From the sequence record PZ534512.1: 64,000 nucleotides of DNA. One strand, written 5' to 3'. Position 1 is the stretch's first letter, and each line of letters begins with the position of its first letter. Below are positions 1-46,075 of this stretch, piece after piece. Source of the stretch: a phage. Position numbers and translations under genes: made by a program. The notes beneath the pieces were generated by a model. The model was given only the letters and a program-made list of their open reading frames with translations. It did no database searches and was not told the origin of the DNA.

Positions 1-39
1 AAGAAACGATTAGAAGATTTAAAATAATTTCACAAAGTT

Positions 40-69
40 GTTTACATAGGGTTTTAGTTGTGATACTAT
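40..69 (+). promoter_or_regulatory. T4-type early promoter
   Basis: GTTTAC-N18-TACTAT, followed by conserved leader ctactgaggagaataaaATG. Confidence 0.6.
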
Positions 70-97
70 TACCCTATCTACTACTGAGGAGAATAAA

Positions 98-283
98 ATG
101 AAACGTTGTGAATTAATTCGAAATGTTGCTATTGCAATTTCTGCTTCTGCTTTTAGTTTTTCAATGTTTGTTGGATTTATATGCGGATTATTGACTACAG
201 CAGAAAACGTTTTTTCACTTGTAGTAGCATTTTTAATTGGTTTAATCGCTATCGTTATGGATAAAATTTCTAAAGGTGAATAG
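98..283 (+). CDS. small hydrophobic protein (61 aa)
   Basis: ATG preceded by GAGGAG RBS; one predicted TM segment. Confidence 0.5.
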   Translation: MKRCELIRNVAIAISASAFSFSMFVGFICGLLTTAENVFSLVVAFLIGLIAIVMDKISKGE

Positions 284-2411: not shown

Positions 2412-2725
2412 GACAAGAAGCCGGGTCGCTACCGGTAAGTCGTCGGACTGATGTTCCCTGAGTAAGGAATTGCGTTAATAATCTTTGCGTTTATTGATGC
2501 CCTCTTATATCACAGCAGAAACGGCGCACCGAATTATCGATTCGAGGAAATATCTTTGCCGTAAGCCGAGTAGCGTTTTTGACGGAACGTTCGGATATGG
2601 TCGAGATATGGCCTTTTAAAAATATTGAGTAGCGTCAACTGCTTGATAACCGGGTTCAAATCCCGGCGTTTCGTACAAACACTTGCCTTAGCAGGTGGAA
2701 CCCCGACAAGGTTGCCGCAAGGCTT
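2412..2725 (+). ncRNA. stable small RNA block (T4 rnaC/rnaD-like species 1/2 RNAs)
   Basis: ~310 nt GC-rich, ORF-free, tRNA-like T-arm (ccgggttcaaatcccgg), directly after tRNA-Arg as in T4. Confidence 0.45.
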
Positions 2726-2754
2726 AGCCCCGACCGAAAGGTTGGGGCTTTTTA
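2726..2754 (+). terminator. hairpin terminator (GAAA loop + T-run)
   Basis: agccccgacc-gaaa-ggttggggct then ttttt. Confidence 0.6.
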
Positions 2755-2755
2755 G

Positions 2756-2763
2756 TATAAATA
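2756..2763 (+). promoter_or_regulatory. T4 late promoter TATAAATA
   Basis: exact TATAAATA about 40 nt upstream of ATG 2804. Confidence 0.6.
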
Positions 2764-2803
2764 TAGTAGTATATTAAATCCACGAATTAAAACAGGAAAT
2801 AAG

Positions 2804-3277
2804 ATGAAATCATATACTCAATTTTTAAATGAAGCGGTGTTAAATGAAGCATCTAGCACCGAAATTCAAGCTGTCGCAAAAGCAGCCATTGCAGCGGGTA
2901 AATATTCTTATAAAGATGCTTCTGATGAATCGCGATTCCAGTTCGCACGCGACATGAAAGCGGAAGGATTTACGGGAAATGCAGTTAGTATGGCCTGGAA
3001 AAGTTTAGTTGCTACTGGCGCTGCTTTTGCAAAGGCTTCGGGTAAACCTGCTCCTAAAGCAGATCCTAAAGTCGCACAAGAGAAAAATATTGTTAAAGGA
3101 ATTATCTCCAAATATGAAGCTATCCTTAAAGAGCTTTTAGTAATCAAAACTGAAGGCCAAAAACTAGCTCGTGCTTATAGTTTCAAAGATAACCCACATG
3201 CTCACTCTCTTGAGTATGTTGAAGACATTCAAAAAATTATTAAAGACCGCATTTGGTCTGCTAAACAAATCAAATAA
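2804..3277 (+). CDS. internal-protein-like capsid-targeted protein (157 aa)
   Basis: N-terminus MKSYTQFLNE/AVLNE fits T4 CTS pattern with L-x-E protease sites; AGGAAA RBS; own late promoter. Confidence 0.6.
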   Translation: MKSYTQFLNEAVLNEASSTEIQAVAKAAIAAGKYSYKDASDESRFQFARDMKAEGFTGNAVSMAWKSLVATGAAFAKASGKPAPKADPKVAQEKNIVKGIISKYEAILKELLVIKTEGQKLARAYSFKDNPHAHSLEYVEDIQKIIKDRIWSAKQIK

Positions 3278-3285
3278 CATTCTTA

Positions 3286-3314
3286 GCCCTAGCCGAAAGG
3301 TTGGGGCTTTTTGG
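3286..3314 (+). terminator. hairpin terminator, near-duplicate of 2726-2754
   Basis: agccctagcc-gaaa-ggttggggct then ttttt. Confidence 0.6.
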
Positions 3315-3445
3315 TATCTAGGCCTTTCCAGGCCTCTCTAGACATCATTTAGTTTCTACCCTTTATAATATATTATCCTATCCTTTGATTTCCCCTCCCT
3401 GCCCTAGAATTCCTCAAAACTTTTTAAAAATTTTTTCACAAAACG

Positions 3446-3475
3446 GTTTACATCCTTGTCCTTCCATGGTACTAT
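3446..3475 (+). promoter_or_regulatory. T4-type early promoter with conserved leader
   Basis: ttttcacaaaacgGTTTAC-N18-TACTAT then acaactatcaactactgatacag. Confidence 0.7.
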
Positions 3476-3518
3476 ACAACTATCAACTACTGATACAGAA
3501 AACAACTTGGAGAATGAA

Positions 3519-3782
3519 ATGGATAATTACGGCGAACTGTTCAACTTCTTTATGAAATGTGTTTCAGAAGATTTTGGTCGTACAGTGAATGATATTAAAG
3601 TTATCGGTCCTGATCATCCGATGTTTGAAACTTATGCAGTAATGGGTAATGAAGATGGTCAGTGGTATACTGTAAAGGTTGTAATTAATATGTTCACGGC
3701 AGAAGGTTATGTTAAACTGTCTTCTAAAGTTTACCATGATAACGACGAAATCGCAGAAGAATATTTCAATAATATGAAATAA
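3519..3782 (+). CDS. hypothetical protein (87 aa)
   Basis: ORF track start 3456 lies inside the promoter; ATG 3519 has GGAG RBS. Confidence 0.5.
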   Translation: MDNYGELFNFFMKCVSEDFGRTVNDIKVIGPDHPMFETYAVMGNEDGQWYTVKVVINMFTAEGYVKLSSKVYHDNDEIAEEYFNNMK

Positions 3783-3850
3783 TTGTGTACAAACACCAAG
3801 GATGGTGTTATTATAGACTTATCAAAACAAATACAGAAACGGAGAAATAA

Positions 3851-4015
3851 ATGACTACTTTAATTATTTGGTTCGACGAAAATGAAGAAACATACTGCGT
3901 GAACATTGGCGAAAGCCCAATGCCAGAATTTGAATCTTCAGATAAAAACTCGGTTGTATCTTGGGCTGAAGGTTATAAAGCAGCAAAAGGCGATGTTGAA
4001 ATAGTTTACATCTAA
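3851..4015 (+). CDS. small hypothetical protein (54 aa)
   Basis: GGAGAAATAA RBS then ATG; below ORF-track length cutoff. Confidence 0.4.
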   Translation: MTTLIIWFDENEETYCVNIGESPMPEFESSDKNSVVSWAEGYKAAKGDVEIVYI

Positions 4016-4059
4016 GTATGAAGGCGTTACTATAGACTTATCATCACAAGGAAAACATT

Positions 4060-4395
4060 ATGAAACGTAACTTTAGTAAAGCTTTTTGTAATAGAAATGA
4101 TTATCCTGAAGAGCTTTTTGAATCTAAGGAATTTAAAGAGTTTAACGAACGTTCTCAAAACATGCCTGTACAGTGGGTATTGGATTATGCTAACCGTATC
4201 TTTGAAGGCGTACGTTTCGTTGGCCCCGATGATGAAGCTCCTTATTTTAAAAAGGCTTGGGAACTCGCCAACCAAGCATATATCAATGCTTTAGAATCTT
4301 CTAAAGGTACTGACGATGATTTTATTTTATTGGCTATCAATGATGCCGTTGTCGAGGCCATCGACGCCTTTATCGACGAGCTAGACGAAGAATAA
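4060..4395 (+). CDS. acidic hypothetical protein (111 aa)
   Basis: AGGAAAA RBS; coding-like composition. Confidence 0.5.
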   Translation: MKRNFSKAFCNRNDYPEELFESKEFKEFNERSQNMPVQWVLDYANRIFEGVRFVGPDDEAPYFKKAWELANQAYINALESSKGTDDDFILLAINDAVVEAIDAFIDELDEE

Positions 4396-4452
4396 GTTTA
4401 CAATCTATTAGAAACGTGATATTATCTAATTATACAAACCTAAGGAAATACT

Positions 4453-5046
4453 ATGAACACACTGAAGAAAATTGTTGAGTTTATTCGCACTAAACTTGGT
4501 TCTGCTATGGCTAAAAATCTATCTGTTGAAGAACAGTATACTGCTGCGGCAGCAAAACTACTTGATAAGATTAAAGATCTAAAAACTGCTTCTGTTAAAT
4601 CTATTAATGAAGAAAAGCGTATTCGTGAACTTATTGTCGAAAAGAATAAGCAGGCCGAATCAAAAGAGCGTGAAATTCGCAAGCTTCTTTCGGAAGGTCA
4701 AGATGTAACAATGCATGCTAAACTTGGTTTACTATATCGTCGAACAGCTGAGCAGTTGACTACTAAAGCTGATGGTTATGCTGAAATGCGAATTGAAATC
4801 GCCAAGAAAGTAGTTGAATTGGATGATGCTCGCCAAGAACTTGCAGTTAAATTGGAATATATCCGTGAAACTCGTGCAGCAAATGCCCTTGGAATTAGTA
4901 CTGCTGATGATGTAGTTGAAATTGCAGCACTGACTAAGGTTGATATTGAAGATACTCTTGCTCGAGTTGAAACCTTTAATGGCAATATTTCTGGGGTTGA
5001 AACTACCTCTGCCGATGTTCAGGAATATATTAATTCTCTGAAATAA
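4453..5046 (+). CDS. coiled-coil hypothetical protein (197 aa)
   Basis: AAGGAAATA RBS; followed by UUCG hairpin at 5052-5067. Confidence 0.55.
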
Positions 5047-7335: not shown

Positions 7336-7866
<531 letters not shown>

Positions 7867-7870
7867 AGCT

Positions 7871-7900
7871 GTTTACTTTCTCTTGCAATTGTGATAGTAT
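7871..7900 (+). promoter_or_regulatory. T4-type early promoter
   Basis: GTTTAC-N18-TAGTAT. Confidence 0.55.
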
Positions 7901-7954
7901 ATTCACAGTTACTTGAATAGATAAATTACTAATTAAAATATTTAAAGGAAACGC

Positions 7955-8272
7955 ATGAAAACATATCAAGAATTTATTGCAGAATCTGCTGCAGGACAGC
8001 GTGTAGAAGGCGGTTATATCTGGATTGAACAAGTTGAGCCGCCAAGTCGCACTTCTACAGGTAAATGGAAAATCACTGTTGATGGTCCTGGTGGTAAACG
8101 TAGGACTCTTAAAGAAATTAACGGGTACTATGAAGAAGCTCTTTCTGACGCGGGTACTTATATGATGCAAATCATGATTAAAAACCCAGAAAATCGTTTT
8201 GCGGCTAGAGTTTTCCGCCGTATTGGAAATAAGCTTTATGATGCATATTCTAAAAACTTCCCTAAAGAATAA
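7955..8272 (+). CDS. internal protein (IPII/IPIII family), CTS-bearing
   Basis: N-terminus MKTYQEFIAE; basic 105-aa protein; downstream of e as in T4. Confidence 0.75.
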   Translation: MKTYQEFIAESAAGQRVEGGYIWIEQVEPPSRTSTGKWKITVDGPGGKRRTLKEINGYYEEALSDAGTYMMQIMIKNPENRFAARVFRRIGNKLYDAYSKNFPKE

Positions 8273-8288
8273 AAATTAAAGGATACAC

Positions 8289-8762
8289 ATGAAAACATAT
8301 CAAGAATTTATTACTGAAGCAGCTATTAATTCTCAAATTATTGCTGAATCTTTTACTGATCTTTTGAAATTTAAAAAAGGTCAAAAAATCACTGCTGTAT
8401 TGGATGATGGTACAGAAATTGAGATGGATGTACAAGGATATAATTATGCAGTAGATGGAAAACTGTATAATAAATCTCATGCTAAATTTGATTCATTTGA
8501 CGACTTTGTTAATACAGTTGAAGATGAAAAAACTCGTCGATCCATTGCAACTGGTGATGCTAAGGTTCTTATGGCACATGGTCATGAACGCATTCGCGCT
8601 AAACAGAATAAAATGGGTGAAGATAATTTTGCATTAGTTGGTTATCAATCTGGTAAACAAACTTATGGCTATCAACGTACTGCTACAATGTATAATAAAA
8701 ATGGTAAAATTGCCTTTGTAAATAGTAAAGGTTCTATTCAGTACGTTAAATCGTTCAAATAA
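8289..8762 (+). CDS. internal protein (IPII/IPIII family), CTS-bearing
   Basis: N-terminus MKTYQEFITEAAINSQIIAE with two L/I-x-E sites; 157 aa. Confidence 0.75.
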   Translation: MKTYQEFITEAAINSQIIAESFTDLLKFKKGQKITAVLDDGTEIEMDVQGYNYAVDGKLYNKSHAKFDSFDDFVNTVEDEKTRRSIATGDAKVLMAHGHERIRAKQNKMGEDNFALVGYQSGKQTYGYQRTATMYNKNGKIAFVNSKGSIQYVKSFK

Positions 8763-10616: not shown

Positions 10617-10894
10617 TGGCTCAATTAAGTGCAGGGTTTGGTTATGAGTATTATACTGCACCTCGTCGTGTATCTGCCGCTCCTAAGAAAATTCAAAGTC
10701 TTGATGACTTCCAGGAAGTAGTCCGTAAAGCTTTTCAGGACTATGCACGCTATCTTAAAGAAGATTCGCAGGACTGTCTCGAAGAAGATGAAATTGCTTA
10801 CTATGAGCAGCGTCTTGAACAGCTTAAAAACTTACATGAGGTTCGTGCAGAAGTTTCAAAGTCTATGAATAAATTGATTAGATTTAAAGAATAA
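10616..10894 (+). CDS. hypothetical protein (92 aa)
   Basis: TAATG coupling to upstream gene. Confidence 0.45.
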
Positions 10895-10896
10895 CT

Positions 10897-10926
10897 GTTT
10901 ACTTTTCCTCTTGACTGTGGTATAAT
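10897..10926 (+). promoter_or_regulatory. T4-type early promoter
   Basis: GTTTAC-N18-TATAAT. Confidence 0.65.
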
Positions 10927-10953
10927 TTTTCTATCAGTTAAGAGGAGAATAAC

Positions 10954-11415
10954 ATGACTATCAACACTGAAGTTTTTATCCGTCGAAATAAGCTTCGTCG
11001 TCACTTTGAGTCGGAGTTTCGTCAAATTAACAATGAGATTCGTGAGGCATCAAAAGCAGCAGGGGTCTCATCGTTTCATCTAAAATATTCTCAGCATCTT
11101 CTTGATCGTGCAATTCAACGGGAGATTGATGAGACATATGTTTTTGAATTATTCCATAAAATAAAAGATCATGTTTTAGAAGTTAATGAATTCCTGAGTA
11201 TGCCTCCGCGTCCTGACATTGACGAGGATTTTATTGATGGGGTTGAATATCGTCCTGGACGTTTAGAAATCACAGATGGAAATCTTTGGCTTGGATTTAC
11301 AGTTTGTAAGCCTAATGAGAAGTTCAAAAACCCGTCACTTCAATGCAGGATGGCAATTATCAACAGTCGTCGTTTACCAGGAAAGGCTTCTAAAGCAGTA
11401 ATTAAAACTCAATGA
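10954..11415 (+). CDS. regB: RegB site-specific endoribonuclease
   Basis: 153 aa; matches T4 RegB as I recall it. Confidence 0.85.
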   Translation: MTINTEVFIRRNKLRRHFESEFRQINNEIREASKAAGVSSFHLKYSQHLLDRAIQREIDETYVFELFHKIKDHVLEVNEFLSMPPRPDIDEDFIDGVEYRPGRLEITDGNLWLGFTVCKPNEKFKNPSLQCRMAIINSRRLPGKASKAVIKTQ

Positions 11416-15058: not shown

Positions 15059-15084
15059 TAGTCTCCTTCGGGAGACTTTTTTCA
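15059..15084 (+). terminator. UUCG-loop hairpin terminator
   Basis: agtctcc-ttcg-ggagact then tttttt. Confidence 0.7.
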
Positions 15085-15092
15085 TTTTACCG

Positions 15093-15122
15093 GTTTACTT
15101 TTCATTTGAGCTGTGATACTAT
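15093..15122 (+). promoter_or_regulatory. T4-type early promoter with conserved leader
   Basis: GTTTAC-N18-TACTAT then acaactatc. Confidence 0.65.
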
Positions 15123-15150
15123 ACAACTATCGGATAAAGAGGAGAACATC

Positions 15151-15339
15151 ATGAAAATTGAAGCACTCAATCAAAAAGGAAATATCTACGTCATCATTAA
15201 TGGTGATTTTTTCGTCGACATGGATGAAGTTACTAGTGAAGAACTTGTAGAACTTCTTAAGAAACGTTATAATATGTGTGATGAAGTTGCAACTCACATG
15301 GCGTGTGCAATATTCTCTCTTTCATATGTGGTGGAATAA
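15151..15339 (+). CDS. hypothetical protein (62 aa)
   Basis: GAGGAGAA RBS; ORF-track N-terminal extension runs through the promoter. Confidence 0.5.
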
Positions 15340-15718: not shown

Positions 15719-15881
15719 AAAGCAGATGTTTTTAATGAAGCTAATTGAAGAATATGCTAATGCAGTTTCTGACTATGAGCATTCTGCTCGGGAAAGAGGT
15801 ACAGCTTTCGCCAAAGAAGAAATGAAAATCATGGTTGATGCTCACACAAAGCTTCAGAATTTTATTGAAAACGTCATTTAA
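15708..15881 (+). CDS. small hypothetical protein (57 aa)
   Basis: ATG overlapping upstream gene end; below ORF-track cutoff. Confidence 0.35.
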   Translation: MKTEKQMFLMKLIEEYANAVSDYEHSARERGTAFAKEEMKIMVDAHTKLQNFIENVI

Positions 15882-15883
15882 TG

Positions 15884-15913
15884 GTTTACAAGTTGGCAAG
15901 GTTATGGTATAGT
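15884..15913 (+). promoter_or_regulatory. T4-type early promoter
   Basis: GTTTAC-N18-TATAGT. Confidence 0.65.
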
Positions 15914-15941
15914 AATCTTGTCAACTGCCAAGGAGAAGAGA

Positions 15942-16046
15942 ATGAAAATTTTGTTTGTTGTGTATGTGGTGATTCAATATAATTACCCAATGTTTACCTA
16001 TAATCTGGTGAACAATATTATTGATATGATTCAAAGGAGTATGTAA
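15942..16046 (+). CDS. 34-aa hydrophobic micro-ORF coupled to downstream gene
   Basis: AGGAGAAGAG RBS then ATG; stop overlaps next start (TAATG). Confidence 0.35.
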   Translation: MKILFVVYVVIQYNYPMFTYNLVNNIIDMIQRSM

Positions 16047-16591
16047 TGATGAGCGAGGCGAAACGATTAGTATTAGAAGTTAGTTCACTTTTTGGTGAAT
16101 TGGCTATAGAAAAAGTAAATAATATGTATCGTTTGACACAAGAAGACGATATGCTATATTTTACGCCTAGTGAAATCATTCATTTAATCCAAATTGAAAA
16201 TCCTTATACTGATAAAATTGTAAGCATTAATGATGAGCATAAAATTCATTTTTATTCTTCATGCCCAGGATTTAATATTGAAAGCGAGTCAATATGCTTA
16301 TCAGTTATCCATTGGGATAGTTTTATAGATAAGATTAAATATTTTTATTATTCTAATGAAAGAAAACATAGTTTAAAATGGTTTAAAAATTGCAATGCTA
16401 TTATTACTAACGCTTGCAATCAGAATGATGAAACTGTTTTAAACGTATCAAAATGTTATGAAGATGGAGATGTCTTAACTATTCGTCAAATTGATGATTT
16501 TCGAGCACATATTGTCACATTTACCAAAGACGAAGCTATTGCGCTAAAGACTTATCTTGATTCTGTCATTCCAACTATGATTTCAAAGTGA
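16046..16591 (+). CDS. hypothetical protein (181 aa), paralog A
   Basis: shares PGFNIESE and C-terminal KTYLDSVIPTM motifs with next ORF. Confidence 0.55.
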   Translation: MMSEAKRLVLEVSSLFGELAIEKVNNMYRLTQEDDMLYFTPSEIIHLIQIENPYTDKIVSINDEHKIHFYSSCPGFNIESESICLSVIHWDSFIDKIKYFYYSNERKHSLKWFKNCNAIITNACNQNDETVLNVSKCYEDGDVLTIRQIDDFRAHIVTFTKDEAIALKTYLDSVIPTMISK

Positions 16592-16597: not shown

Positions 16598-17119
16598 ATG
16601 TTTATTTCAAGTGAAAGTGGTTTAATTCGTGTTGAATTTAAAAATGACATCTTTCTTATTCAAGGAGATGATACTATTAAAATGAGTTATGACGAAATCA
16701 AGAAAATTTGTCACATTCTTGGAAGTCGTGGAAAAGTAAATGCTGTTATTGACATCGGTGATTTATGGGTAACTCTTTATGAAGTATCCGAAGGATTTAA
16801 CATTGAAGATGAAAACAACATCTTAGCTATTGATAAAAGAAGCGATTTGTTTGATGTGTTAAAAGTTTATGAACAGTCAAACGGTGGAAGAAAAGCTGCA
16901 TTGATTTATCAAAAACCACATTCATGCGGAACTGCTTCAATTATTTCAGATATTGAAGATGAAACTGATACTTATATGTGTGTTTTAAAAGCTGGTGGTG
17001 ACCGTCATCCGGATTTTATTTCTATTCGTCAAAACAATGGAGAAATTTCATTATCAAAATCAGAAGCTGAAGCTATGATTAAGTATTTAACAACTGTTAC
17101 ACCTTCAATGAAAGGATAA
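16598..17119 (+). CDS. hypothetical protein (173 aa), paralog B
   Basis: EGFNIEDE and C-terminal IKYLTTVTPSM motifs. Confidence 0.55.
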   Translation: MFISSESGLIRVEFKNDIFLIQGDDTIKMSYDEIKKICHILGSRGKVNAVIDIGDLWVTLYEVSEGFNIEDENNILAIDKRSDLFDVLKVYEQSNGGRKAALIYQKPHSCGTASIISDIEDETDTYMCVLKAGGDRHPDFISIRQNNGEISLSKSEAEAMIKYLTTVTPSMKG

Positions 17120-17121
17120 TT

Positions 17122-17583
17122 ATGATTATTAATGAAAACTCTTGGCACTATAAATTATTCAAACTGTTTAACGACGAATGGAAACGACCTAAGACACTGT
17201 GTGCATACTTTTGGTCTATTGTTATCCCTACATTTTTCGTTTCTTTTTTCGGATGTACTATACTCGCAGGTCTAACTATTATCTGTGCAGAAATCATGCA
17301 GAAATGGCTTATTTTTGGTAGTTTATGGACTCTTATTCCATCAGCATTTATACTTGCCATTTTGCTTGTTTTACTTATTATTGGTTCATTTGTTATTCCT
17401 GCACAACTGCATGAAAAATATAAAGATTATAAATGGAAAAAGGATTATGCTTTACATGTAGAAAATATTGATAGGGCGTATAAAGGTTTACCTCCTATTC
17501 AACCCAAGAAATCTATTATCGTCGAATTTTTAAAAGCACGTAAAGCTAAAGTATGTCCTGTTATTGAATATAAGGCTGAATGA
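17122..17583 (+). CDS. multi-TM membrane protein (153 aa)
   Basis: three hydrophobic helices; AAAGGA RBS. Confidence 0.55.
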   Translation: MIINENSWHYKLFKLFNDEWKRPKTLCAYFWSIVIPTFFVSFFGCTILAGLTIICAEIMQKWLIFGSLWTLIPSAFILAILLVLLIIGSFVIPAQLHEKYKDYKWKKDYALHVENIDRAYKGLPPIQPKKSIIVEFLKARKAKVCPVIEYKAE

Positions 17584-18593: not shown

Positions 18594-18595
18594 TA

Positions 18596-18619
18596 GGGAG
18601 CCTTCGGGCTCCCTTTTTT
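18596..18619 (+). terminator. UUCG-loop hairpin terminator
   Basis: gggagcc-ttcg-ggctccc then tttttt. Confidence 0.7.
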
Positions 18620-18643
18620 ATTTCAAAAATTTTTCACAAAACG

Positions 18644-18673
18644 GTTTACAAGCATAAAGCTTTATGGTACTAT
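18644..18673 (+). promoter_or_regulatory. T4-type early promoter with conserved leader
   Basis: GTTTAC-N18-TACTAT then acaactatcaactgatacag. Confidence 0.7.
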
Positions 18674-18707
18674 ACAACTATCAACTGATACAGATTTGGA
18701 GAATAAA

Positions 18708-19676
18708 ATGAAAACTGTAACTATCAATAAGGGTATCTACTTCGGTAAAGAAATCTCTGGAACTTTTGAGCTCTTAGGCGAATGGTTCCCAGATAATGCT
18801 CCGGTAGATGCACAAGGAGATGGTAAAGTTTTTGTTGAAATTGACGGTAAGCGTCGCGGTGTTTGGGTTTACAAATCAGACATTTCATATGATGGTGTAA
18901 AAGTTGAAGAAGTTAAAGAATCATATGAAGATATGAAAACCCGCATTAATAAAAGATTTAATGTTATGGGAATGATGACGAATGGTATTATTAACGGAAA
19001 CATTCGTTCATTAATTATCTCTGGTGCGGCGGGTATTGGTAAAACGTATTCTTTAGATAAAGCTTTAAATAAAGCAAATGATATTGGATACATTGAATAT
19101 AAAAGCATTAATGGTAAAATCTCTGGTATTGGTCTTTATGAACAGCTTTGGAATAATCGTGAAGAGAATTCTGTCCTTTTGATTGATGATGTGGATGTTT
19201 TCTCTGATATGGACATTCTTAATCTTCTGAAAGCTGCTCTGGACACTGGAGAGACCCGTAAAGTCTGCTGGAGCACTGCGTCTTCTTACTTAGAAGAAAA
19301 AGGCATTGAGCGTGAGTTTGAATTTAAAGGAACGATTGTTTTTATCACAAACGTTGACATTGACCGCGAATTAGACCGTGGTACTAAACTTGCTCCACAT
19401 TTACAAGCATTAGTGTCCCGCTCAGTTTATTTGGATTTGGGTGTTCACACTAATGAAGAAATTATGGTCAGGGTTGAAGATGTTATTCTTTCAACTGACA
19501 TGATGCAAAAGCGCGGTCTTTCTGATGAAGAAACTTATAAAGCATTATCATGGATGAAAGTCAATGTTAATCGTTTACGCAATGTTTCACTGCGTACTGC
19601 TCTTTATCTTGCTGACTTTATTATGACAGACAAAAACGGTTGGGAAGAAATTGCTGAAACGGTATTATTAAAATGA
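18708..19676 (+). CDS. AAA-type ATPase (322 aa; T4 nrdC.10 position)
   Basis: Walker A GAAGIGKT, Walker B LLIDDVD; GGAGAATAAA RBS. Confidence 0.65.
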   Translation: MKTVTINKGIYFGKEISGTFELLGEWFPDNAPVDAQGDGKVFVEIDGKRRGVWVYKSDISYDGVKVEEVKESYEDMKTRINKRFNVMGMMTNGIINGNIRSLIISGAAGIGKTYSLDKALNKANDIGYIEYKSINGKISGIGLYEQLWNNREENSVLLIDDVDVFSDMDILNLLKAALDTGETRKVCWSTASSYLEEKGIEREFEFKGTIVFITNVDIDRELDRGTKLAPHLQALVSRSVYLDLGVHTNEEIMVRVEDVILSTDMMQKRGLSDEETYKALSWMKVNVNRLRNVSLRTALYLADFIMTDKNGWEEIAETVLLK

Positions 19677-20474: not shown

Positions 20475-20777
20475 ATGTTATACTCAAAGGCTCGTGAAAT
20501 TTACGAAACTAAAATTAAAGAAGCAGTATTTCAGTTCGCAACAACGATGCGATGGACAAATGATTGGGAGTATTCAAAAAATCATAAGAAGCCCATGGTG
20601 ACAAGAAAGGCTCATATGTTAGTGTTAATAGACCGTGAGCAGATTAAAGCCCGAGAAGCCCTCCAGAATCATAAAAAGGCTGCTTTTGAATGGTTTATGG
20701 ATAACACTGCTCCTGAGACTAAGAAAGCGGTGAGCGCGTGGTTCAGTGGAAAAAATTGTGAAAGAAGTTTCTTTTAG
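20475..20777 (+). CDS. hypothetical protein (100 aa)
   Basis: GGAGG RBS before internal ATG. Confidence 0.5.
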   Translation: MLYSKAREIYETKIKEAVFQFATTMRWTNDWEYSKNHKKPMVTRKAHMLVLIDREQIKAREALQNHKKAAFEWFMDNTAPETKKAVSAWFSGKNCERSFF

Positions 20778-20779
20778 TT

Positions 20780-20809
20780 GTTTACAAGACCGTTCCTCTG
20801 TGGTACTAT
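20780..20809 (+). promoter_or_regulatory. T4-type early promoter with conserved leader
   Basis: GTTTAC-N18-TACTAT then acaactatcaactac. Confidence 0.7.
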
Positions 20810-20837
20810 ACAACTATCAACTACGGAGGAACAGAAA

Positions 20838-21365
20838 ATGAATGCTAAAGATATTTTCAACTTGGTAAACTACAATGATGGTAAATTTAAATCTGAAGCA
20901 CAAAGTAAGTTCTTTAATGACATCTCAATCGGTGGTGAAATCACGGTTGATGGAGGACAAGTTTATAAATCTCGTTGGAATTGGATCGTTATTATCGATG
21001 AGATTGGTATTGTAGAAATTTACAAAAATACGAATAAAAATCGTACATTACACTGGTCTCGTGATACTAACGAACAGTACAAAAAGGATAAAGCATCTAA
21101 ATTATCTCGTGTAACTCAAGAAGATATTGAGTTCATCAAGAAAGATATTTTGATGTATGATAACTTAATTGCTGAAGAGCAAGCTGTTATTGATAAATTT
21201 GACGAGATTAAAGCTTCTCGTGAAATTCCTGATTTTATGAAAGAATCAGTAAATGAACGATACACTCTCATTTCAGAGCGTATTGAAACTTACAAAAAGC
21301 AAAGAGCTGAACGCCAGAATACTCTTCAGAAGTTTGAAGAACGGTTAAAGACGGTACTCGCATAA
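20838..21365 (+). CDS. hypothetical protein (175 aa)
   Basis: GGAGGAACAGAAA RBS; ORF-track extension runs through promoter. Confidence 0.55.
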   Translation: MNAKDIFNLVNYNDGKFKSEAQSKFFNDISIGGEITVDGGQVYKSRWNWIVIIDEIGIVEIYKNTNKNRTLHWSRDTNEQYKKDKASKLSRVTQEDIEFIKKDILMYDNLIAEEQAVIDKFDEIKASREIPDFMKESVNERYTLISERIETYKKQRAERQNTLQKFEERLKTVLA

Positions 21366-22732: not shown

Positions 22733-23761
22733 ATGAAAACTCGTTCTCAAATTGAAGATATGGTTCGTAATGCCAGCTATACTCGTGATGTTATGACATT
22801 TTTGTGTGAAAATAATTTAGACCCTGATAAAGTTAATCGTGTTATTCATCACTTTAAGTATACGAATAGCAGTGAATGGGTGCGTAATTTTAGTAAAGCG
22901 GGGTATATTACACAAATGACTGCTCGTGAGCAGCTCACCGATTTCTGTAAAACTATTGATTATAAAAATCCTCTATTTGTTCAAGGTGTTGGTCAGAGTA
23001 AGGTTGATTTATCATCTGGATTTTTTAATCCAAATCATTATCGTATTGAATGGAGATTTATTGCTCTATTCCGTAAGCAATTAAAGCAAATTTTGTCGAC
23101 GGCTAGTCGATTAAAAGGTTCTGACATTAACTTAAAGAACCTGAAATTTGATGGTTATACTCTTCAGATGGAAGTAAGACCATTAAAAGAAAATAACAGA
23201 ACTGCACGAATTAGCTTTAAACCTAATACAAAAAATTCTCTTTCAATTTGCGAATGCCTTAAATCGCAGTTGACAGAAGCATTTAAGTATATGGATGTTG
23301 TTGCCGCTGTTCAGTCTAAGATTTTACCTCGTTTTGAGCGAAATTGGGAACATACAACAACATATGAACTTGATATGGTTGTTTCATTTAAATATGATTT
23401 TTTGAGAAAGGACGAAGTCCCGCAAGAGAAAAAGCAGGAAGTACAAGATAACTTAAATTTAAATTTATCCAATTACTTATCAAACGATCCTAAATTTTGG
23501 ATGTATAGTTCAGGTAATAAAGATGCATGGAAATTTAATAAAGTGAATTTTCTTCCTATTGAAAATCCGAGTCTTAAACCTGTTGAAAAATGGCATGCAG
23601 ATGCGATTGAGAAGTCTATCAAGGCAGTAGATGATGAACTCGTTAAAGCAACTAATGAAGTGCTAGAAGCTGAAAAGATGTTGGAAAAAGCTCAAGAAAA
23701 AGTCAAAAATCTTACGAAGCAACGTTCTAAACTGAACAATGCACTAAATGCACTGAACTAG
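22733..23761 (+). CDS. hypothetical protein with C-terminal coiled coil (342 aa)
   Basis: AAGGAACAC RBS; C-terminus ...LEKAQEKVKNLTKQRSKLNNALNALN. Confidence 0.55.
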   Translation: MKTRSQIEDMVRNASYTRDVMTFLCENNLDPDKVNRVIHHFKYTNSSEWVRNFSKAGYITQMTAREQLTDFCKTIDYKNPLFVQGVGQSKVDLSSGFFNPNHYRIEWRFIALFRKQLKQILSTASRLKGSDINLKNLKFDGYTLQMEVRPLKENNRTARISFKPNTKNSLSICECLKSQLTEAFKYMDVVAAVQSKILPRFERNWEHTTTYELDMVVSFKYDFLRKDEVPQEKKQEVQDNLNLNLSNYLSNDPKFWMYSSGNKDAWKFNKVNFLPIENPSLKPVEKWHADAIEKSIKAVDDELVKATNEVLEAEKMLEKAQEKVKNLTKQRSKLNNALNALN

Positions 23762-23790
23762 TTTACATTGCCACAAGGATGTGGTATAAT
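23761..23790 (+). promoter_or_regulatory. T4-type early promoter
   Basis: GTTTAC-N18-TATAAT, overlapping stop of upstream gene. Confidence 0.65.
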
Positions 23791-23818
23791 GTTCTTACTT
23801 TCTACTGAGGAGATTATT

Positions 23819-24820
23819 ATGACTCGCAACGAATATATTAAATCGTTCAACAGCGTTATTGATGATAAAGCTATACCGATGTTTGGTCAAAATATCGTTC
23901 TTTCTATTATCAATCAATGGCTCAATAATACTGATGCAAGTATTGTTTCTTCTACTAAATTTATTCATGAAATTCGTAAAATTTCTAGCCGTGTAGATAA
24001 AGATGTTATTAAGAAAACCTTTAAAGAGTCTCGTCTTCTTTCATATTTGGTTAATCGGGATATTCTTGGTAATTTTGGGAAAGAAATTAAACGAACTAAA
24101 GATGTAGTAGGATATAATTGGTTCGGTGATGTTAATTCTTATCATCTTAATAATAAAGAAGACCCTGAGAATATTTTTACTCGTCGTTGGATTAGTAATT
24201 TCAAACTTTTCAAAGGACAAATTCTAAAATCAGCTTCTAAATTATGTTATGGCGATTATCGTCAAATTCATCCTTTGGCTTCTGATATGATTATCGTAAA
24301 AGAATATGAGCTTGATGAAAATAAAGTAGCTATTTTTGTGAATTATGGATTTTTTACACCAAACGCTAGCCAAAAGAATATTAATAAATTTTTCTCAATT
24401 GCTAGCACTATAACTCGTCAGTTAGAGACTGCATTACTTTGTATGGAAACAGTAGAAAATATTCATACATATCCTTTTAAGAATATATGCGGATGGGAAG
24501 GATATAAAATTGTAATTAGTCTTCGTGAAGTGAAATGTGCTTATTCACCTACTGATAAAGAAATTTATCAACAAAAATGTGAGGAAATTGTGAATACTTC
24601 TAAAGAAGAAACTACCCTTGAGGAACTAATGGATAATCTTGATGATTCGCCTGAACCGGCAGAAATTCGTCCAGAAGTTATTGCATTAGAAAAAGCTTAT
24701 AAAGAAGTTCTAGAAATTTCTAATAAAGCGCAGAAAGAATATGAGCAGGCTAAAAAGATTTGGGAAGAATCTGTCAATCGCTTGGATCGTCTTGAACAAG
24801 CTTTACAGTTAATTAAGTAA
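23819..24820 (+). CDS. hypothetical protein with C-terminal coiled coil (333 aa)
   Basis: leader ctactgaggagattattATG; C-terminus ...RLDRLEQALQLIK. Confidence 0.55.
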   Translation: MTRNEYIKSFNSVIDDKAIPMFGQNIVLSIINQWLNNTDASIVSSTKFIHEIRKISSRVDKDVIKKTFKESRLLSYLVNRDILGNFGKEIKRTKDVVGYNWFGDVNSYHLNNKEDPENIFTRRWISNFKLFKGQILKSASKLCYGDYRQIHPLASDMIIVKEYELDENKVAIFVNYGFFTPNASQKNINKFFSIASTITRQLETALLCMETVENIHTYPFKNICGWEGYKIVISLREVKCAYSPTDKEIYQQKCEEIVNTSKEETTLEELMDNLDDSPEPAEIRPEVIALEKAYKEVLEISNKAQKEYEQAKKIWEESVNRLDRLEQALQLIK

Positions 24821-28538: not shown

Positions 28539-30352
28539 CAATTGAAAAAGAAATTGAAGGATTGATTCATAAAACTAATAAAGACCTTTTAAACGAGAAT
28601 GCTAATAAAGATTCTCGTGTTTTTCCAACTCAACGGGACCTTATGGCTGGTATTGTGTCTAAACACATTGCCAAAAATATGGTCCCGTCTTTTATTATGA
28701 AAGCGCATGAAAGCGGAATTATTCATTTCCACGATATTGATTATTCCCCTGCTCTTCCATTTACTAATTGTTGTTTAGTAGATTTAAAAGGAATGCTTGA
28801 GAATGGATTTAAGCTTGGTAATGCGCAGATTGAAACTCCTAAATCAATTGGAGTTGCTACTGCAATTATGGCACAAATTACTGCACAGGTTGCTTCCCAT
28901 CAATACGGCGGAACGACTTTTGCTAATGTAGATAAAGTACTTTCTCCTTATGTTAAACGCACCTATGCAAAACATATTGAGGATGCAGAAAAATGGCAAA
29001 TCGCCGATGCACTGAATTATGCTCAATCTAAAACAGAAAAAGACGTATACGATGCATTCCAAGCTTATGAATATGAAGTAAATACTCTCTTTAGTTCAAA
29101 CGGACAAACGCCTTTTGTAACAATTACATTTGGTACGGGAACTGACTGGACTGAACGAATGATTCAGAAAGCAATTCTGAAAAATCGTATTAAAGGTCTT
29201 GGTCGTGATGGGATAACTCCTATTTTCCCTAAGCTTGTTATGTTCGTTGAAGAAGGTGTTAATCTTTATAAAGACGATCCGAACTATGATATTAAGCAGC
29301 TTGCTCTAGAGTGTGCAAGCAAAAGGATGTATCCTGATATTATTTCAGCTAAGAACAATAAAGCTATCACTGGTTCATCTGTTCCTGTTTCTCCAATGGG
29401 TTGCCGTAGTTTCTTGAGCGTATGGAAAGATTCGACTGGTAATGAAATTCTTGATGGACGTAATAATCTTGGTGTTGTAACACTGAATCTTCCTCGCATC
29501 GCGTTAGATTCTTATATTGGAACACAATTCAATGAACAGAAATTTGTTGAGCTATTTAATGAACGAATGGATTTATGTTTTGAAGCTTTGATGTGTAGAA
29601 TTAGTTCCTTAAAAGGAGTTAAAGCTACTGTTGCTCCTATTCTTTACCAAGAAGGTGCATTCGGGGTTCGTCTTAAACCTGATGACGACATAATTGAGTT
29701 ATTTAAAAACGGTAGAAGTTCAGTGTCCCTAGGATACATTGGTATTCACGAATTGAATATTCTTGTCGGTCGTGATATTGGACAAGAAATTTTAACTAAG
29801 ATGAATGCTCATCTTAAACAGTGGACTGAAAGAACTGGATTTGCTTTTAGTTTATATTCGACTCCTGCTGAAAACCTTTGTTATCGCTTCTGTAAACTTG
29901 ATACAGAAAAATATGGAAGTGTAAAAGATGTTACCGATAAAGGCTGGTACACTAACAGTTTCCATGTTTCAGTAGAAGAAAATATTACTCCGTTTGAAAA
30001 GATTTCTCGTGAAGCGCCATATCATTTCATTGCGACAGGTGGTCACATTTCTTATGTTGAACTTCCTGATATGAAAAATAACTTAAAAGGCCTTGAGGCC
30101 GTATGGGATTATGCTGCGCAACATTTAGATTATTTTGGTGTTAACATGCCGGTAGATAAATGTTTTACATGCGGAAGTACCCATGAAATGACTCCTACTG
30201 AAAACGGATTTGTTTGTTCTATTTGTGGAGAAACTGATCCTAAAAAGATGAATACAATAAGAAGAACATGTGGTTATTTGGGAAATCCGAACGAACGTGG
30301 ATTTAATCTCGGCAAAAATAAAGAAATCATGCATAGGGTTAAGCATCAATGA
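28535..30352 (+). CDS. nrdD: anaerobic ribonucleotide reductase NrdD, intron-less
   Basis: 605 aa continuous; C-terminal glycyl-radical motif RRTCGYLG and Zn site CTCGSTH...CSICG. Confidence 0.95.
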   Translation: MTIEKEIEGLIHKTNKDLLNENANKDSRVFPTQRDLMAGIVSKHIAKNMVPSFIMKAHESGIIHFHDIDYSPALPFTNCCLVDLKGMLENGFKLGNAQIETPKSIGVATAIMAQITAQVASHQYGGTTFANVDKVLSPYVKRTYAKHIEDAEKWQIADALNYAQSKTEKDVYDAFQAYEYEVNTLFSSNGQTPFVTITFGTGTDWTERMIQKAILKNRIKGLGRDGITPIFPKLVMFVEEGVNLYKDDPNYDIKQLALECASKRMYPDIISAKNNKAITGSSVPVSPMGCRSFLSVWKDSTGNEILDGRNNLGVVTLNLPRIALDSYIGTQFNEQKFVELFNERMDLCFEALMCRISSLKGVKATVAPILYQEGAFGVRLKPDDDIIELFKNGRSSVSLGYIGIHELNILVGRDIGQEILTKMNAHLKQWTERTGFAFSLYSTPAENLCYRFCKLDTEKYGSVKDVTDKGWYTNSFHVSVEENITPFEKISREAPYHFIATGGHISYVELPDMKNNLKGLEAVWDYAAQHLDYFGVNMPVDKCFTCGSTHEMTPTENGFVCSICGETDPKKMNTIRRTCGYLGNPNERGFNLGKNKEIMHRVKHQ

Positions 30353-30819
30353 ATTATGATAGATTTTATCCTTGCGATTTTGTGAATGGCCCTGGTTGCA
30401 GGGTCGTTCTTTTCGTTACAGGTTGTTTGCATAAATGCGAAGGGTGTTATAATAAATCAACATGGAATGCTAGAAATGGTATTCCATTCACTGGTGAAAC
30501 ACTAGAACAATTAATTGAATGTTTGAATAATGATTATATAGAAGGATTGACTATAACTGGAGGAGACCCTCTCTATCCGGATAATCGAGATGTTATTCAT
30601 TGCATTGTTCAAACAGTAAAAAATCTTTATCCCAATAAAAGCATTTGGTTGTGGACAGGATATAAGTTTGAAGATATTAAACAACTAGAAATGCTTAAAT
30701 ATGTTGATGTTATTATTGATGGGAAGTATGAGAAAAATCTTCCGACTAAAAAGCTGTGGCGAGGATCAGATAATCAGCAACTTTGGTCAAATACCGATGG
30801 GGTGTGGAAACATGATTAA
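30349..30819 (+). CDS. nrdG: NrdD activating enzyme (radical SAM) NrdG
   Basis: 156 aa; CxxxCxxC cluster CLHKCEGC; ATGA overlap with nrdD. Confidence 0.92.
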   Translation: MNYDRFYPCDFVNGPGCRVVLFVTGCLHKCEGCYNKSTWNARNGIPFTGETLEQLIECLNNDYIEGLTITGGDPLYPDNRDVIHCIVQTVKNLYPNKSIWLWTGYKFEDIKQLEMLKYVDVIIDGKYEKNLPTKKLWRGSDNQQLWSNTDGVWKHD

Positions 30820-31784: not shown

Positions 31785-31857
31785 TCACATTCTGTATATT
31801 ACCATTCTAAGCTATCGTTCCTTTCTTATCATTCCCTAAAATATTTTTCACAAAGTT

Positions 31858-31887
31858 GTTTACAACAAGTTCAAACCATGGTATTAT
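31858..31887 (+). promoter_or_regulatory. T4-type early promoter
   Basis: atttttcacaaagttGTTTAC-N18-TATTAT. Confidence 0.6.
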
Positions 31888-31917
31888 TAACATATGAATT
31901 ACCTTTGAGGAATTGAT

Positions 31918-32100
31918 ATGGTTGTAGTTGATAAAGAAATTAAAAAGGGACAGTATTATCTCATTAATGGTAATGCTGTTCGTGTTACTCATGTAAATAG
32001 TTTTGAAGTTTGCTATATTATACTCAAGTTACATAAACGCATGATTTGCGATCGTGCTGCATTTAGTTCAGTTGCTAAGGAAATTAAACTCCATGGGTAA
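31918..32100 (+). CDS. hypothetical protein (60 aa)
   Basis: GAGGAATTGAT RBS. Confidence 0.5.
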   Translation: MVVVDKEIKKGQYYLINGNAVRVTHVNSFEVCYIILKLHKRMICDRAAFSSVAKEIKLHG

Positions 32101-35137: not shown

Positions 35138-35161
35138 AAACCAAAACAAAGAGGATATTAA

Positions 35162-46041: not shown

Positions 46042-46054
46042 TAGAATAAATCTA

Positions 46055-46075
46055 GGGACCTCCGGGTCCCTTTTT
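46055..46075 (+). terminator. hairpin terminator
   Basis: gggacc-tccg-ggtccc then ttttt. Confidence 0.75.

Follow-up and report, generated by a model that had tools for sequence, protein, structure and literature searches.

The early promoters (Pe) of phage T4 have been described as "uber" UP/-35/TGn/-10 promoters with additional consensus regions (PMC2988021), and their GTTTAC motif is located at -36 to -31 (PMC1524935). Composites of the form TTTACW-N17-TAYWAT followed by a Shine-Dalgarno (SD) sequence and an ATG are the PeSLs (promoter-early stem-loop cassettes) of the T4/PST pair, where they were linked to indels (PMC4122927). In phage RB49, mapping placed crossovers in the interval from the -10 to the SD or ATG (PMC2839356). 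The phage endoribonuclease RegB and ribosomal protein S1 recognize the consensus GGAGRAYARAA, for which GGAGAAUAAAA is the T4 optimum and single-strandedness is required (PMC3014915, PMC1702504).

We analysed 64,000 nt of phage DNA (PZ534512.1; the window), which is the early-gene arm of a Tequatrovirus and is 99.9% identical to a Tequatrovirus. T4 positions 73,589-7,615 are colinear with it in reverse complement, at 88-98% identity. The window contains dispersed, repeated cassettes that, like PeSLs (Arbiol et al. 2010; Comeau et al. 2014), combine an AT-rich region, an early promoter, an SD and an ATG. As in PeSLs, individual copies lie next to indels that separate close relatives, with crossovers from the -10 to the SD or ATG, and the TTTACW-N17-TAYWAT core of the T4/PST pair is identical. 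Unlike in PeSLs, an upstream terminator hairpin adjoins only 3 of the 21 copies (15060, 18595 and 56021), so the full PeSL definition suits a minority. Pe3446 and Pe46159 have neither an abutting terminator hairpin nor a hairpin enclosing the -10.

Early promoters of the window

The pattern GTTTAC-N18-TAnnnT, allowing up to one mismatch, matches the window 13 times, always on the + strand; 0.51 matches are expected from shuffles, and none of 100 shuffles reached 13. A wider scan combined with inspection gave a total of 21 promoters (Table 1). All ten positions named in the initial annotation carry GTTTAC-N18-TA(C/T)(T/A)AT on the + strand, and, with 21 promoters found, that annotation therefore listed about half. 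Discrimination comes from the T4-specific pattern only and not from generic sigma-70 signals, for which a scan of the window was uninformative (87 sites vs 79 expected). An ATG with an SD sequence lies 54-84 nt downstream of every one of the 21 promoters, and the distance from GTTTAC to ATG is near-constant (56-60 nt) in 15 of them; TGn is present in 18 and GGAG in 15. The T4 genome has 34 such early-promoter sites in all, and the window's sites recur there. More broadly, BLAST matches to the cassette occur at 9-11 places per genome among 650 phage records.

Judged from sequence, these blocks are very probably sigma-70-dependent, T4-like early promoters coupled to translation-initiation regions, with a sub-family related through both descent and exchange. 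They are co-oriented with early genes, lie just upstream of them and occupy positions orthologous to T4 Pe. The published architecture is matched: GTTTAC(A/T) stands 17 bp (in the TTTACA register) from a TAnnnT -10, with an extended -10 TGn and an A/T-rich UP element at about -40 to -60. The independent record of phage Lutter agrees, annotating promoters at window positions 3447-3476, 3786-3815, 4005-4034 and ~4397. Nothing essential distinguishes the cassettes from T4 Pe in these features or in the consensus around the start, and the present phage has promoter-plus-gene modules of its own (ORF-X at 46226 and a 54-aa ORF at 3851). Conservation was also said to extend past the hexamers, and it does: in the 34 early promoters of T4, the information content is 0.25-0.7 bit at each position from -3 to +7, where the consensus reads ACT ATCAACT, and the UP region, with the block AAAAATTTTTCACAAA, is also informative in the logo.

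From orthology and motif, we infer promoter activity and the transcription start. The UP element, A/T-rich and located at about -57 to -38 (AAAAATTTTTCACAAA), would serve the RNA polymerase alpha C-terminal domains. It is followed by the T4-specific -35 GTTTAC(A), a 17-bp spacer with TGn at its end, a -10 of TA(C/T)(T/A)AT, and the discriminator/start-site consensus ACAACT / ATCAAC. Transcription would begin at the A located 7 nt past the -10, and a G-poor, unstructured leader of 20-37 nt then leads to the SD and the ATG. In the best copies the SD is GGAGAAUAAAA, where RegB with ribosomal protein S1 would cut, turning early messages off.

Table 1. Early-promoter cassettes and associated features of the window
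Feature	Position	Strand	Elements and remarks
Pe40 cassette, upstream of trna.4 homologue	16-100	+	GTTTAC 40-45; TACTAT 64-69; leader; ATG 98
RegB/S1-type SD of Pe40	88-98		GGAGAATAAAA
Terminator repeat, left copy	2723-2758	+	35 bp; flanks 524-bp insertion upstream of Pe3446
Terminator repeat, right copy	3282-3317	+	~130 nt upstream of Pe3446
Pe3446 (e.8)	3401-3521	+	UP block; GTTTAC 3446-3451; TGG-TACTAT 3470-3475; long leader ACAACTATCAACTACTGATACAGAAAACAACTTGGAGAATGAA; ATG 3519; orthologue of T4 Pe at 70696; promoter-annotated in Lutter
Pe3785, before 54-aa ORF	3761-3853	+	GTGTAC variant; left breakpoint at 3814 for indels vs T4, Manna and RB32
Pe4004 (e.7 homologue)	3980-4062	+	Breakpoints 4010, 4049
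Pe4396 (e.6 homologue)	4372-4455	+	Breakpoint 4437
Pe7871 (internal-protein gene)	7847-7957	+	
Pe10897 (regB)	10873-10956	+	-10 in loop of strong hairpin, 3' arm over SD; -22.4 kcal/mol, z -5.2
Pe15093 (mobD.5)	15060-15153	+	Terminator hairpin 15060-15077; sub-family TACTAT-ACAACTATC
Pe15884	15860-15944	+	-10 in hairpin loop, z -4.4
Pe15992 (candidate)	15968-16048	+	No TGn; weakest member
Pe18644 (nrdC.10)	18595-18710	+	Terminator hairpin 18595-18614; UP TTTTTCACAAA; GTTTAC 18644; TACTAT; leader ACAACTATCAACTGATACAGATTT; GGAGAATAAAA 18698-18708; ATG 18708
Pe20780 (nrdC.8)	20756-20840	+	Short leader; 13-bp hairpin spacer:SD, z -4.1
Pe23761 (nrdC.4)	23737-23821	+	
Pe31858 (55.6)	31830-31920	+	UP block ATTCCCTAAAATATTTTTCACAAA in common
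Pe46159, downstream of gene 43	46120-46228	+	UP block; GTTTAC 46159; TACTAT; leader ACAACTATCAACTACTGATACAGATTT; GGAGAATAAAA 46216-46226; ATG 46226
ORF-X	46226-46462	+	78-aa variable gene, predicted to be driven by Pe46159; missing from T4, RB32 and RB14; other gene in its place in T2 and Manna
Pe51879 (61.4/dmd region)	51855-51940	+	-10 in hairpin loop, z -4.3
Pe52382 (sp)	52358-52442	+	
Pe56054	56021-56112	+	Terminator hairpin 56021-56038
Pe58165	58141-58223	+	Hairpin: -10 region paired with SD and ATG, z -4.1
Pe59501 (srd homologue)	59477-59568	+	
Pe63365 (motB.2)	63341-63424	+	Hairpin spacer:SD, -23.7 kcal/mol, z -5.8

Near-identical copies, module exchange and indels

Several copies had been described as nearly verbatim. 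They form a sub-family with a common TACTAT-ACAACTATC(AACTAC...), and the description holds for the whole block in Pe3446, Pe18644 and Pe46159 but goes too far for Pe15093 and Pe20780. An ungapped comparison of Pe46159 with Pe3446 over 75 nt gives 87% identity, and the main difference between Pe18644 and Pe3446 is a 3-nt deletion. All that Pe15093 and Pe20780 have in common with the sub-family is TACTAT and the next 9 and 18 nt of ACAACTATC(AACTACGGA); their upstream sequence differs. An upstream block, TTTTTCACAAA, is common to Pe3446, Pe18644, Pe46159 and Pe31858, and Pe40 has a shortened form of it (TTTCACAAA). The spacers of the paralogues Pe20780 and Pe46159, a functionally neutral part of the promoter, are identical at 17 of 18 positions. 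A scan of IMG/VR with TACTATACAACTATCAACT returned only 25 fragments, from a few T4-like contigs, with the same leader before different genes.

The early promoter that follows gene 43 is a patchwork, and its locus provides a clean case, in 15 genomes, of module swapping within a single promoter. The upstream flank is orthologous in all 15, and the spacer and leader modules are known from three other loci. Three types of spacer, at least four types of leader and three kinds of downstream gene occur there in nearly all combinations. Specifically, RB14 has an e.8-type spacer (18/18) and leader (31/31), T2 has an nrdC.8-type spacer (17-18/18) and leader (31/31), and Manna joins the e.8 spacer to the nrdC.8 leader.

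The proposal that the cassettes are sites of recombination is supported by individual cassette-flanked cases, but the general correlation with breakpoints is weak. At Pe40, a 664-bp insertion in RB32 (Ip7 and Ip9) has cassette copies on both sides; at Pe18644, T2 has a 568-bp extra gene between 50-bp repeats (T-tract, UP element and -35); and nested deletions occur among Pe3785, Pe4004 and Pe4396. In comparisons with six genomes, the cassettes hold 11 of 75 breakpoints (p=2.7e-4 vs random bases) and 9 of 52 events. At the level of junctions in six genomes, those bearing promoters were broken in 8 of 19 cases vs 44 of 116 for other gene junctions (Fisher p=0.46), a difference from PeSLs. Promoter junctions show no excess breakage, and the cassettes are therefore one kind of short repeat among several and not the main driver. 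Other indel-flanking repeats are terminators, a MotA-box middle-promoter repeat and an internal-protein N-terminal coding repeat. The alignment of ERS-1 covered window positions 30.1-64 kb, and phage HY03, whose match is a paralogous cassette in a structural region, was left out.

Cassette copies are direct repeats with stretches of 15-50 bp of identity. With this identity and the very active homologous recombination of T4, deletion, insertion or swapping of small genes and conversion of cassettes may occur, and such a pathway presumably acts on the cassettes. It seems unlikely that they are instead dedicated mobile elements, which a specific recombinase or DNA-binding protein would move as mini-circles, and not passive patches of homology for general recombination. 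PeSL mini-circles were obtained by inverse PCR in RB49 and phi1, with speculation about a dedicated factor (PMC2839356), and the same cassette precedes at least eight different genes across genomes. However, the switch points coincide with the longest stretches of identity (at the -35 hexamer, in the -10/discriminator block and at SD-ATG), unrelated repeats flank equally many indels, promoter junctions are not enriched, and the homology needed for T4 recombination is below 50 bp.

Leaders and RegB sites

The initial annotation suggested that the leader may be an RNA-processing or translation element. This stands for the 3' part, GGAGAATAAAA-TG, which is both an SD and an exact RegB/S1 target, but not for the 5' part, which lacks structure. 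The leader 3' end GGAGAATAAAA is exactly the published 11-nt cleavage consensus. Exact matches in the window (88-98, 18698-18708 and 46216-46226; 0.52 expected) are all cassette 3' ends, and they lie in early translation-initiation regions in a single-stranded context (leader-fold z >=0). Near matches at other cassettes are degenerate (GGAGAATGAAA, GGAGAACATCA, GGAGGAACAGA and GGATAATAAAA). The cassettes resemble the RegB/S1 sites of Durand et al. (2006) in the exact GGAGAAUAAAA at 88, 18698 and 46216, in the unstructured leaders of early genes and in the overlap with the SD; unlike those sites, the degenerate versions may be poorer substrates. A regB homologue is encoded within the window, downstream of Pe10897, and orthology and motif together suggest that RegB cleaves at the cassette sites.

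The 5' leader block (ATCAACTACTGATACAGA) is conserved. Such a block, in the form ATCAACUACUGAUAC(A/G)GAUUU, could be specifically targeted by some factor of host or phage origin (e.g., for RNase E/G entry) that sets the lifetime of early mRNA independently of RegB, a possibility that we consider improbable. In its favour, ACAGAUUUGG is similar to the RNase E model substrate BR10, ACAGUAUUUG (PMC7849360), RNase E and RNase G have a part in early T4 mRNA decay, and the block is retained at several loci in hundreds of genomes. The likeness is short and AU-rich, however; T4 and most relatives have G in place of A (ACGGAUUU), further natural variants occur (GAUGCGGAUUU and AAUACGGAUUU), and the e.8 leader has no AUUU. 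RegB/S1, for its part, requires nothing 5' of GGAG.

Similarity among copies could also reflect pure functional convergence on an optimum for RNA polymerase and the ribosome, with neither shared descent nor a role in recombination. Consistent with this, a general consensus (+1 is A in 14 of 22, -1 is T in 13 of 22) covers all early promoters, also those that are not in the sub-family, and promoter junctions are broken no more often than others. This reading is disfavoured and quite improbable, as spacers, which make no base-specific contacts, are identical or nearly so (17-18/18) between loci 25-43 kb apart and occur in new combinations with leaders downstream of gene 43, and cassette repeats of 43-50 bp flank insertions.

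A structured cis-regulatory RNA (riboswitch, attenuator or protein-binding hairpin) in the conserved leader is highly improbable: the 5' end of the long leaders permits a 4-5-bp inverted repeat (UAUCA-ACUAC-UGAUA), but example leaders have minimum free energies of -0.6 to -3.4 kcal/mol and z of -0.12 to +1.25 vs shuffles, the small repeat is deleted or broken in natural variants (ACTGATAC, ACTAATAC and the short ACTACGGAGG), structure prediction for the 21 leaders gave a mean z of +0.70 (p=7e-6; folding no better than shuffles, or worse), an Rfam covariance-model search of the window at gathering score matched only 8 tRNAs (1053-2408) and no leader, and RegB requires single-stranded RNA. The UAUCA/UGAUA hairpin itself was rejected, with energies near zero and with natural variants that break it.

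Hairpins around the -10

A hairpin encloses about one third of the early promoters, placing the -10 in its loop and, in many cases, the SD under its 3' arm. A hairpin enclosing the -10 has z < -2 at 7 of the 21 promoters; this is the position reported for RB49 and not for the T4/PST pair. The focal long-leader cassettes (3446, 18644 and 46159) have no such hairpin. A control scan recovered the T4 e and 49 hairpins. Across orthologues, single stem substitutions keep pairing in 31 cases vs 34 that break it, so general covariation support is absent; purely pair-preserving changes occur only in the strongest stems (15884 and 51879).

It is possible, if on balance doubtful, that the cassettes are self-insulating expression modules, in about a third of which the -35/-10 spacer is complementary to the transcript start or the SD. 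RNA reading through from an upstream promoter would fold so that the -10 lies in a hairpin loop and the SD is in many cases hidden, while the cassette's own transcript would start in the loop and be open to ribosomes and RegB. This coupling would be created or lost as spacer and leader modules are exchanged: downstream of gene 43, the nrdC.8-type spacer is still joined to its partner leader in T2 but no longer so at Pe46159 here. In T4 genes e, soc, 49 and I-TevI, a promoter likewise lies within a hairpin with the SD under the 3' arm, so that transcripts from upstream would be occluded and those of the embedded promoter would be open. The same geometry is predicted at Pe10897, Pe20780, Pe58165 and Pe63365, with the difference that an early promoter is embedded here and late promoters there. 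If self-insulation is real, early promoters across the genome would follow a logic that T4 is known to use only at the late promoters of those four genes.

Biological significance

The early-promoter identity of the cassettes agrees with published work on T4 early promoters, PeSLs and RegB sites, and is therefore already known; the main text of the T4 omics paper holds no per-gene data on cassette loci. The value lies in confirmation from one more genome, with nothing new for T4 in these roles, in the 15-genome case of module swapping, and in a quantitative caution that, among gene junctions in six genomes, those with promoters are no special hotspots. For annotation, the cassettes flag the true starts of many tiny ORFs, and they offer phage engineers portable expression units that are ready to use. 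Overall, they would account for the T4-type capture of host RNA polymerase within seconds of infection, for the silencing of early messages via RegB, and for the gain, loss and re-driving of small accessory genes without disturbance of their neighbours.

Genomic context

By BLAST, a 3-kb piece around the repeated cassettes shares 99.9% identity with Escherichia phage vB-Eco-KMB22, and hundreds of Tequatrovirus genomes match it at 95-97%. Local BLAST places the window as the reverse complement of T4 from ~73,589 to 7,615, spanning ipI/trna.4 to motB.2; it is colinear with T4 at 88-98% identity except at indels, has a G+C content of 31-38%, and carries nearly all of its genes on the + strand. 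The window is the early-gene arm typical of T-even phages. Relative to T4, the mobile-endonuclease genes mobD, I-TevII (intron in nrdD), mobC, mobB, segA, and segF are missing or replaced, dam is missing, and the b-gt region is replaced. Eight tRNA genes form a cluster that contains several of the indel breakpoints; tRNA content varies among T4, T2, RB14, and RB32.

Positions of features in the window
Feature	Positions
tRNA gene cluster	1053-2408
Differences from T4 in mobile-endonuclease, dam, and b-gt content	~16616-17579, 29070, 30349-30369, 35146-35171, 47988-48936, 55121-55142, 55700-55731
Long-leader ACAGATTTGG	18690-18700, 46208-46218
35-bp terminator repeat	2723/3282
524-bp insertion	2723-3317
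157-aa ORF	2804-3277
Internal-protein N-terminal coding repeat	7937/8271
Gene-start repeats ATGAAAACATATCAAGAATTTATT	7937-7990, 8271-8324, 53718-53748, 2804-2834
MotA-box-like direct repeat	53328-53362, 53686-53720
ORF-X	46226-46462
Strong hairpin, Pe10897 (regB)	10897-10956
Strong hairpin, Pe15884	15884-15944
Strong hairpin, Pe20780	20780-20840
Strong hairpin, Pe51879	51879-51940
Strong hairpin, Pe58165	58165-58223
Strong hairpin, Pe63365	63365-63424
Further sites with spacer complementarity	40-100, 15992-16048, 23761-23821

Early promoters

GTTTAC-N18-TACTAT, allowing at most one mismatch, has 13 matches, all on the + strand; shuffled sequences averaged 0.51, and none of 100 reached 13. Relaxing the -10 to TAnnnT, with inspection of context, yielded 21 promoters, named here Pe plus the first base of the -35. 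GTTTAC lies 56-60 nt from the ATG in 15 of them (54-84 nt overall), TGn precedes the -10 in 18, and GGAG occurs in the Shine-Dalgarno (SD) region in 15. Unlike this T4-specific pattern, which stands out from the window background, a generic sigma-70 scan was uninformative in such AT-rich DNA (87 sites versus 79 expected).

All 10 block positions named in the initial annotation are among the 21 promoters. Five had been described as nearly verbatim copies; alignment and repeat-finder family D1 bear this out over the entire block for Pe3446 (e.8), Pe18644 (nrdC.10), and Pe46159, which have in common the UP block, the -10, and the leader ACAACTATCAACT(AC)TGATACAGA, but the rest are graded relatives. 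Pe20780 (nrdC.8) and Pe15093 (mobD.5) have in common only TACTAT plus ACAACTATC(AACTACGGA). A second motif, CTACTGAGGAG/T, is common to Pe40 (the trna.4 homologue), Pe23761, Pe52382, and Pe63365.

The reading of these blocks as promoters, made from sequence alone, was correct, as seen from T4 orthology, promoter architecture, and existing annotation. Orthologous T4 positions carry the same sites, and additional T4 members of the sub-family lie upstream of motA (163673) and at 167086 and 146875. A profile of 34 T4 sites has A/T tracts from -60 to -40, an invariant GTTTAC at -36 to -31, TG at -15/-14, TAnnnT, and moderate conservation from -3 to +7 (ACT ATCAACT). This agrees with the published architecture, in which T4 early promoters are "uber" UP/-35/TGn/-10 promoters with extra consensus regions (Hinton review, PMC2988021) and GTTTAC at -36 to -31 is preceded by an A-rich UP-like tract at -40 to -44 (Nolan et al., PMC1524935). 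Promoter features in the GenBank entry for phage Lutter coincide exactly with window 3447-3476, 3786-3815, and 4005-4034, and one lies at ~4397.

Leader and predicted RegB site

The conserved leader had been proposed to be an RNA-processing or translation element, which holds in outline for its 3' end. The best-conserved cassettes end in GGAGAATAAAA followed by TG. The target of RegB, a phage endoribonuclease acting with ribosomal protein S1, was described by Durand et al. (2006): it is the 11-nt single-stranded GGAGRAYARAA (T4 optimum, GGAGAAUAAAA), lying within early-gene SDs and cleaved between G and A (PMC3014915, PMC1702504). Three exact matches occur in the window (88, 18698, and 46216; 0.52 expected), all of them at cassette 3' ends, and degenerate forms of the motif are present at other cassettes.

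The leader's 5' portion is unstructured. Six representative leaders folded at -0.6 to -3.4 kcal/mol (z, -0.12 to +1.25), all 21 (inferred +1 to ATG+14) were less structured than dinucleotide shuffles (mean z, +0.70; t-test p=7e-6), and an Rfam search returned only the eight tRNAs. A small inverted repeat, UAUCA...UGAUA, was rejected as a candidate: natural variants delete or break it (ACTGATAC, ACTAATAC, and a short ACTACGGAGG leader). Outside the 12-member T4 sub-family, start sites still show T(-1)A(+1)T(+2)C(+3) as a weaker preference (A at +1 in 14/22; p=0.003), so there is a general functional consensus around the start, presumably serving initiation and escape. Superimposed on it is a leader block that is verbatim among related copies only. 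The long-leader ACAGATTTGG is similar to the RNase E model substrate BR10, ACAGUAUUUG; this is only a weak lead, because T4 and most relatives have G in place of its A.

Gene-content breakpoints

BLAST alignments of the window were chained against T4, T2, RB32, RB14, ERS-1 (half of the window), and Salmonella phage Manna, giving 75 distinct breakpoints and 52 distinct events, each an indel or a replacement. Individual indels are flanked by cassettes, so the suggestion that these repeats are recombination sites stands in outline. At Pe40, RB32 has a 664-bp insertion (Ip7, Ip9) between two copies identical from -10 to ATG, where its annotation notes a 43-bp direct repeat. Upstream of nrdC.10, T2 and Manna carry an additional gene of 161 aa that lies between copies of a 50-bp repeat comprising a terminator T-tract, the UP element, and the -35. 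The adjacent Pe3785, Pe4004, and Pe4396 bound nested deletions and one replacement, with ends at GTTTAC(A) and the SD, and the 78-aa ORF-X is bounded by a cassette and a 14-bp ATGAAAAT... repeat.

Cassettes make up 4.2% of bases and contain 11 of the 75 breakpoints (p=2.7e-4). Nearly every breakpoint falls at a gene junction, however, and across the six genomes junctions with a promoter were broken no more often than those without (8/19 versus 44/116; odds ratio, 1.2; p=0.46). Other indels are flanked by other repeats, including a 35-bp terminator repeat and an internal-protein N-terminal coding repeat. For both reasons, the cassettes serve in this six-genome sample as recombination substrates and not as special hotspots.

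Several of these other repeats have features of their own. In the ipII/ipIII region, an indel of 281-291 bp has repeated gene starts (MKTYQEFI) on either side. Compared with T4, T2, and Manna, the window has a 524-bp insertion whose flanking 35-bp repeat is a terminator hairpin and which encodes a 157-aa ORF. The N terminus of this ORF, MKSYTQFLNE, is similar to the MKTYQEFI start encoded by the repeats at 7955, 8289, and 53718, an RB32 Ip gene begins likewise, and the RB32 equivalent of the ORF is annotated between 34-bp imperfect direct repeats. A direct repeat of 35-49 bp, with a MotA-box-like AATGCTTT, an SD, and an ATG, flanks a 309-bp segment; T4 lacks this segment, which in RB32 and RB14 is a 61.2-like duplicate. 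The repeat is a middle-promoter analogue of the early cassettes.

Predicted promoter-embedded hairpins

The spacers of many early promoters show complementarity to the sequence directly after the -10 or to the SD, with arms that differ from promoter to promoter. In T4, a complementary run scoring at least 7 occurs in 14/34 promoters versus 3.7% of non-cognate spacer/leader pairs (permutation p<0.0005). Given this complementarity to the transcript start or SD, read-through RNA would form a strong hairpin, and the promoter's own transcript would be unstructured.

Window segments from the -35 to ATG+5 were folded as RNA, mimicking a transcript from upstream. Six promoters gave hairpins whose loop holds the -10, at -18 to -24 kcal/mol (z, -4.1 to -5.8), and the mean z of all 21 segments was -1.69 (p=0.002). 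The SD lies under the 3' arm at Pe10897, Pe20780, Pe58165, and Pe63365. With the same 64-nt geometry, z fell below -2 at 7/21 promoter-bearing starts versus 6/115 other gene starts (odds ratio, 9.1; p=7e-4), and those six include the known e and 49 hairpins; the strong hairpin is a specific feature of gene starts with an early promoter. For the two cleanest stems, every orthologue substitution preserves pairing (from G-U to A-U or G-C); when all predicted stems are pooled, 31 substitutions keep pairing and 34 break it, with no excess. The focal long-leader cassettes are without such a hairpin. T4 e, soc, 49, and I-TevI are known for the same hairpin geometry, with late promoters; in the promoter-early stem-loop cassettes (PeSLs) of RB49, a stem-loop is reported in the same position as the window hairpins.

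Module exchange downstream of gene 43

Polymerase makes no base-specific reading of the -35/-10 spacer. Paralogous cassettes nevertheless have spacers in common: Pe20780 and Pe46159 match at 17/18 positions, and T4 146875 and 55384 at 18/18. We compared the Pe46159 locus, just downstream of gene 43, in 15 genomes (window 46041-46486). The upstream flank is orthologous in all 15, and beyond it are three spacer types (aagactgttcttccatgg, e.8-type atccctgttcttccatgg, and nrdC.8-type aagactgttcctctgtgg), at least four leader types, and a first gene that is imm.1, one of two allelic forms of ORF-X, or ORF-Y, which is unrelated. ORF-X is signal-peptide-like. Nearly all combinations of spacer, leader, and first gene were seen. 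RB14 has an e.8-type spacer (18/18) and leader (31/31), and T2 has an nrdC.8-type spacer (17-18/18) and leader (31/31); Manna joins an e.8-type spacer to an nrdC.8-type leader, and the window joins an nrdC.8-type spacer to an nrdC.10-type leader. The switch points fall within the conserved -35 and -10/discriminator blocks. Because donor-type cassettes lie 25-43 kb away, the exchange is ectopic.

Relation to known composite elements

Comeau, Arbiol, and Krisch (2014) described elements in the T4/PST pair composed of an AT-rich region, TTTACW-N17-TAYWAT, SD, and ATG, frequently accompanied by a stem-loop, and linked them to indels (PMC4122927). In RB49 and phi1, Arbiol et al. (2010) reported mini-circles from recombination between such elements, the crossovers falling in the interval from the -10 to the SD or ATG; as cited there, similar elements occur at T-even internal-protein loci (Repoila et al., 1994) and T4 deletions were described by Mosig et al. 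(1998) (PMC2839356). As these T4/PST and RB49/phi1 elements and the RegB/S1 site are already published, none of the main parts of the finding is new. The repeats themselves are real, ordinary, and well accounted for. Two side observations are of modest interest: the hairpins embedded in promoters and the mosaic promoter at gene 43.
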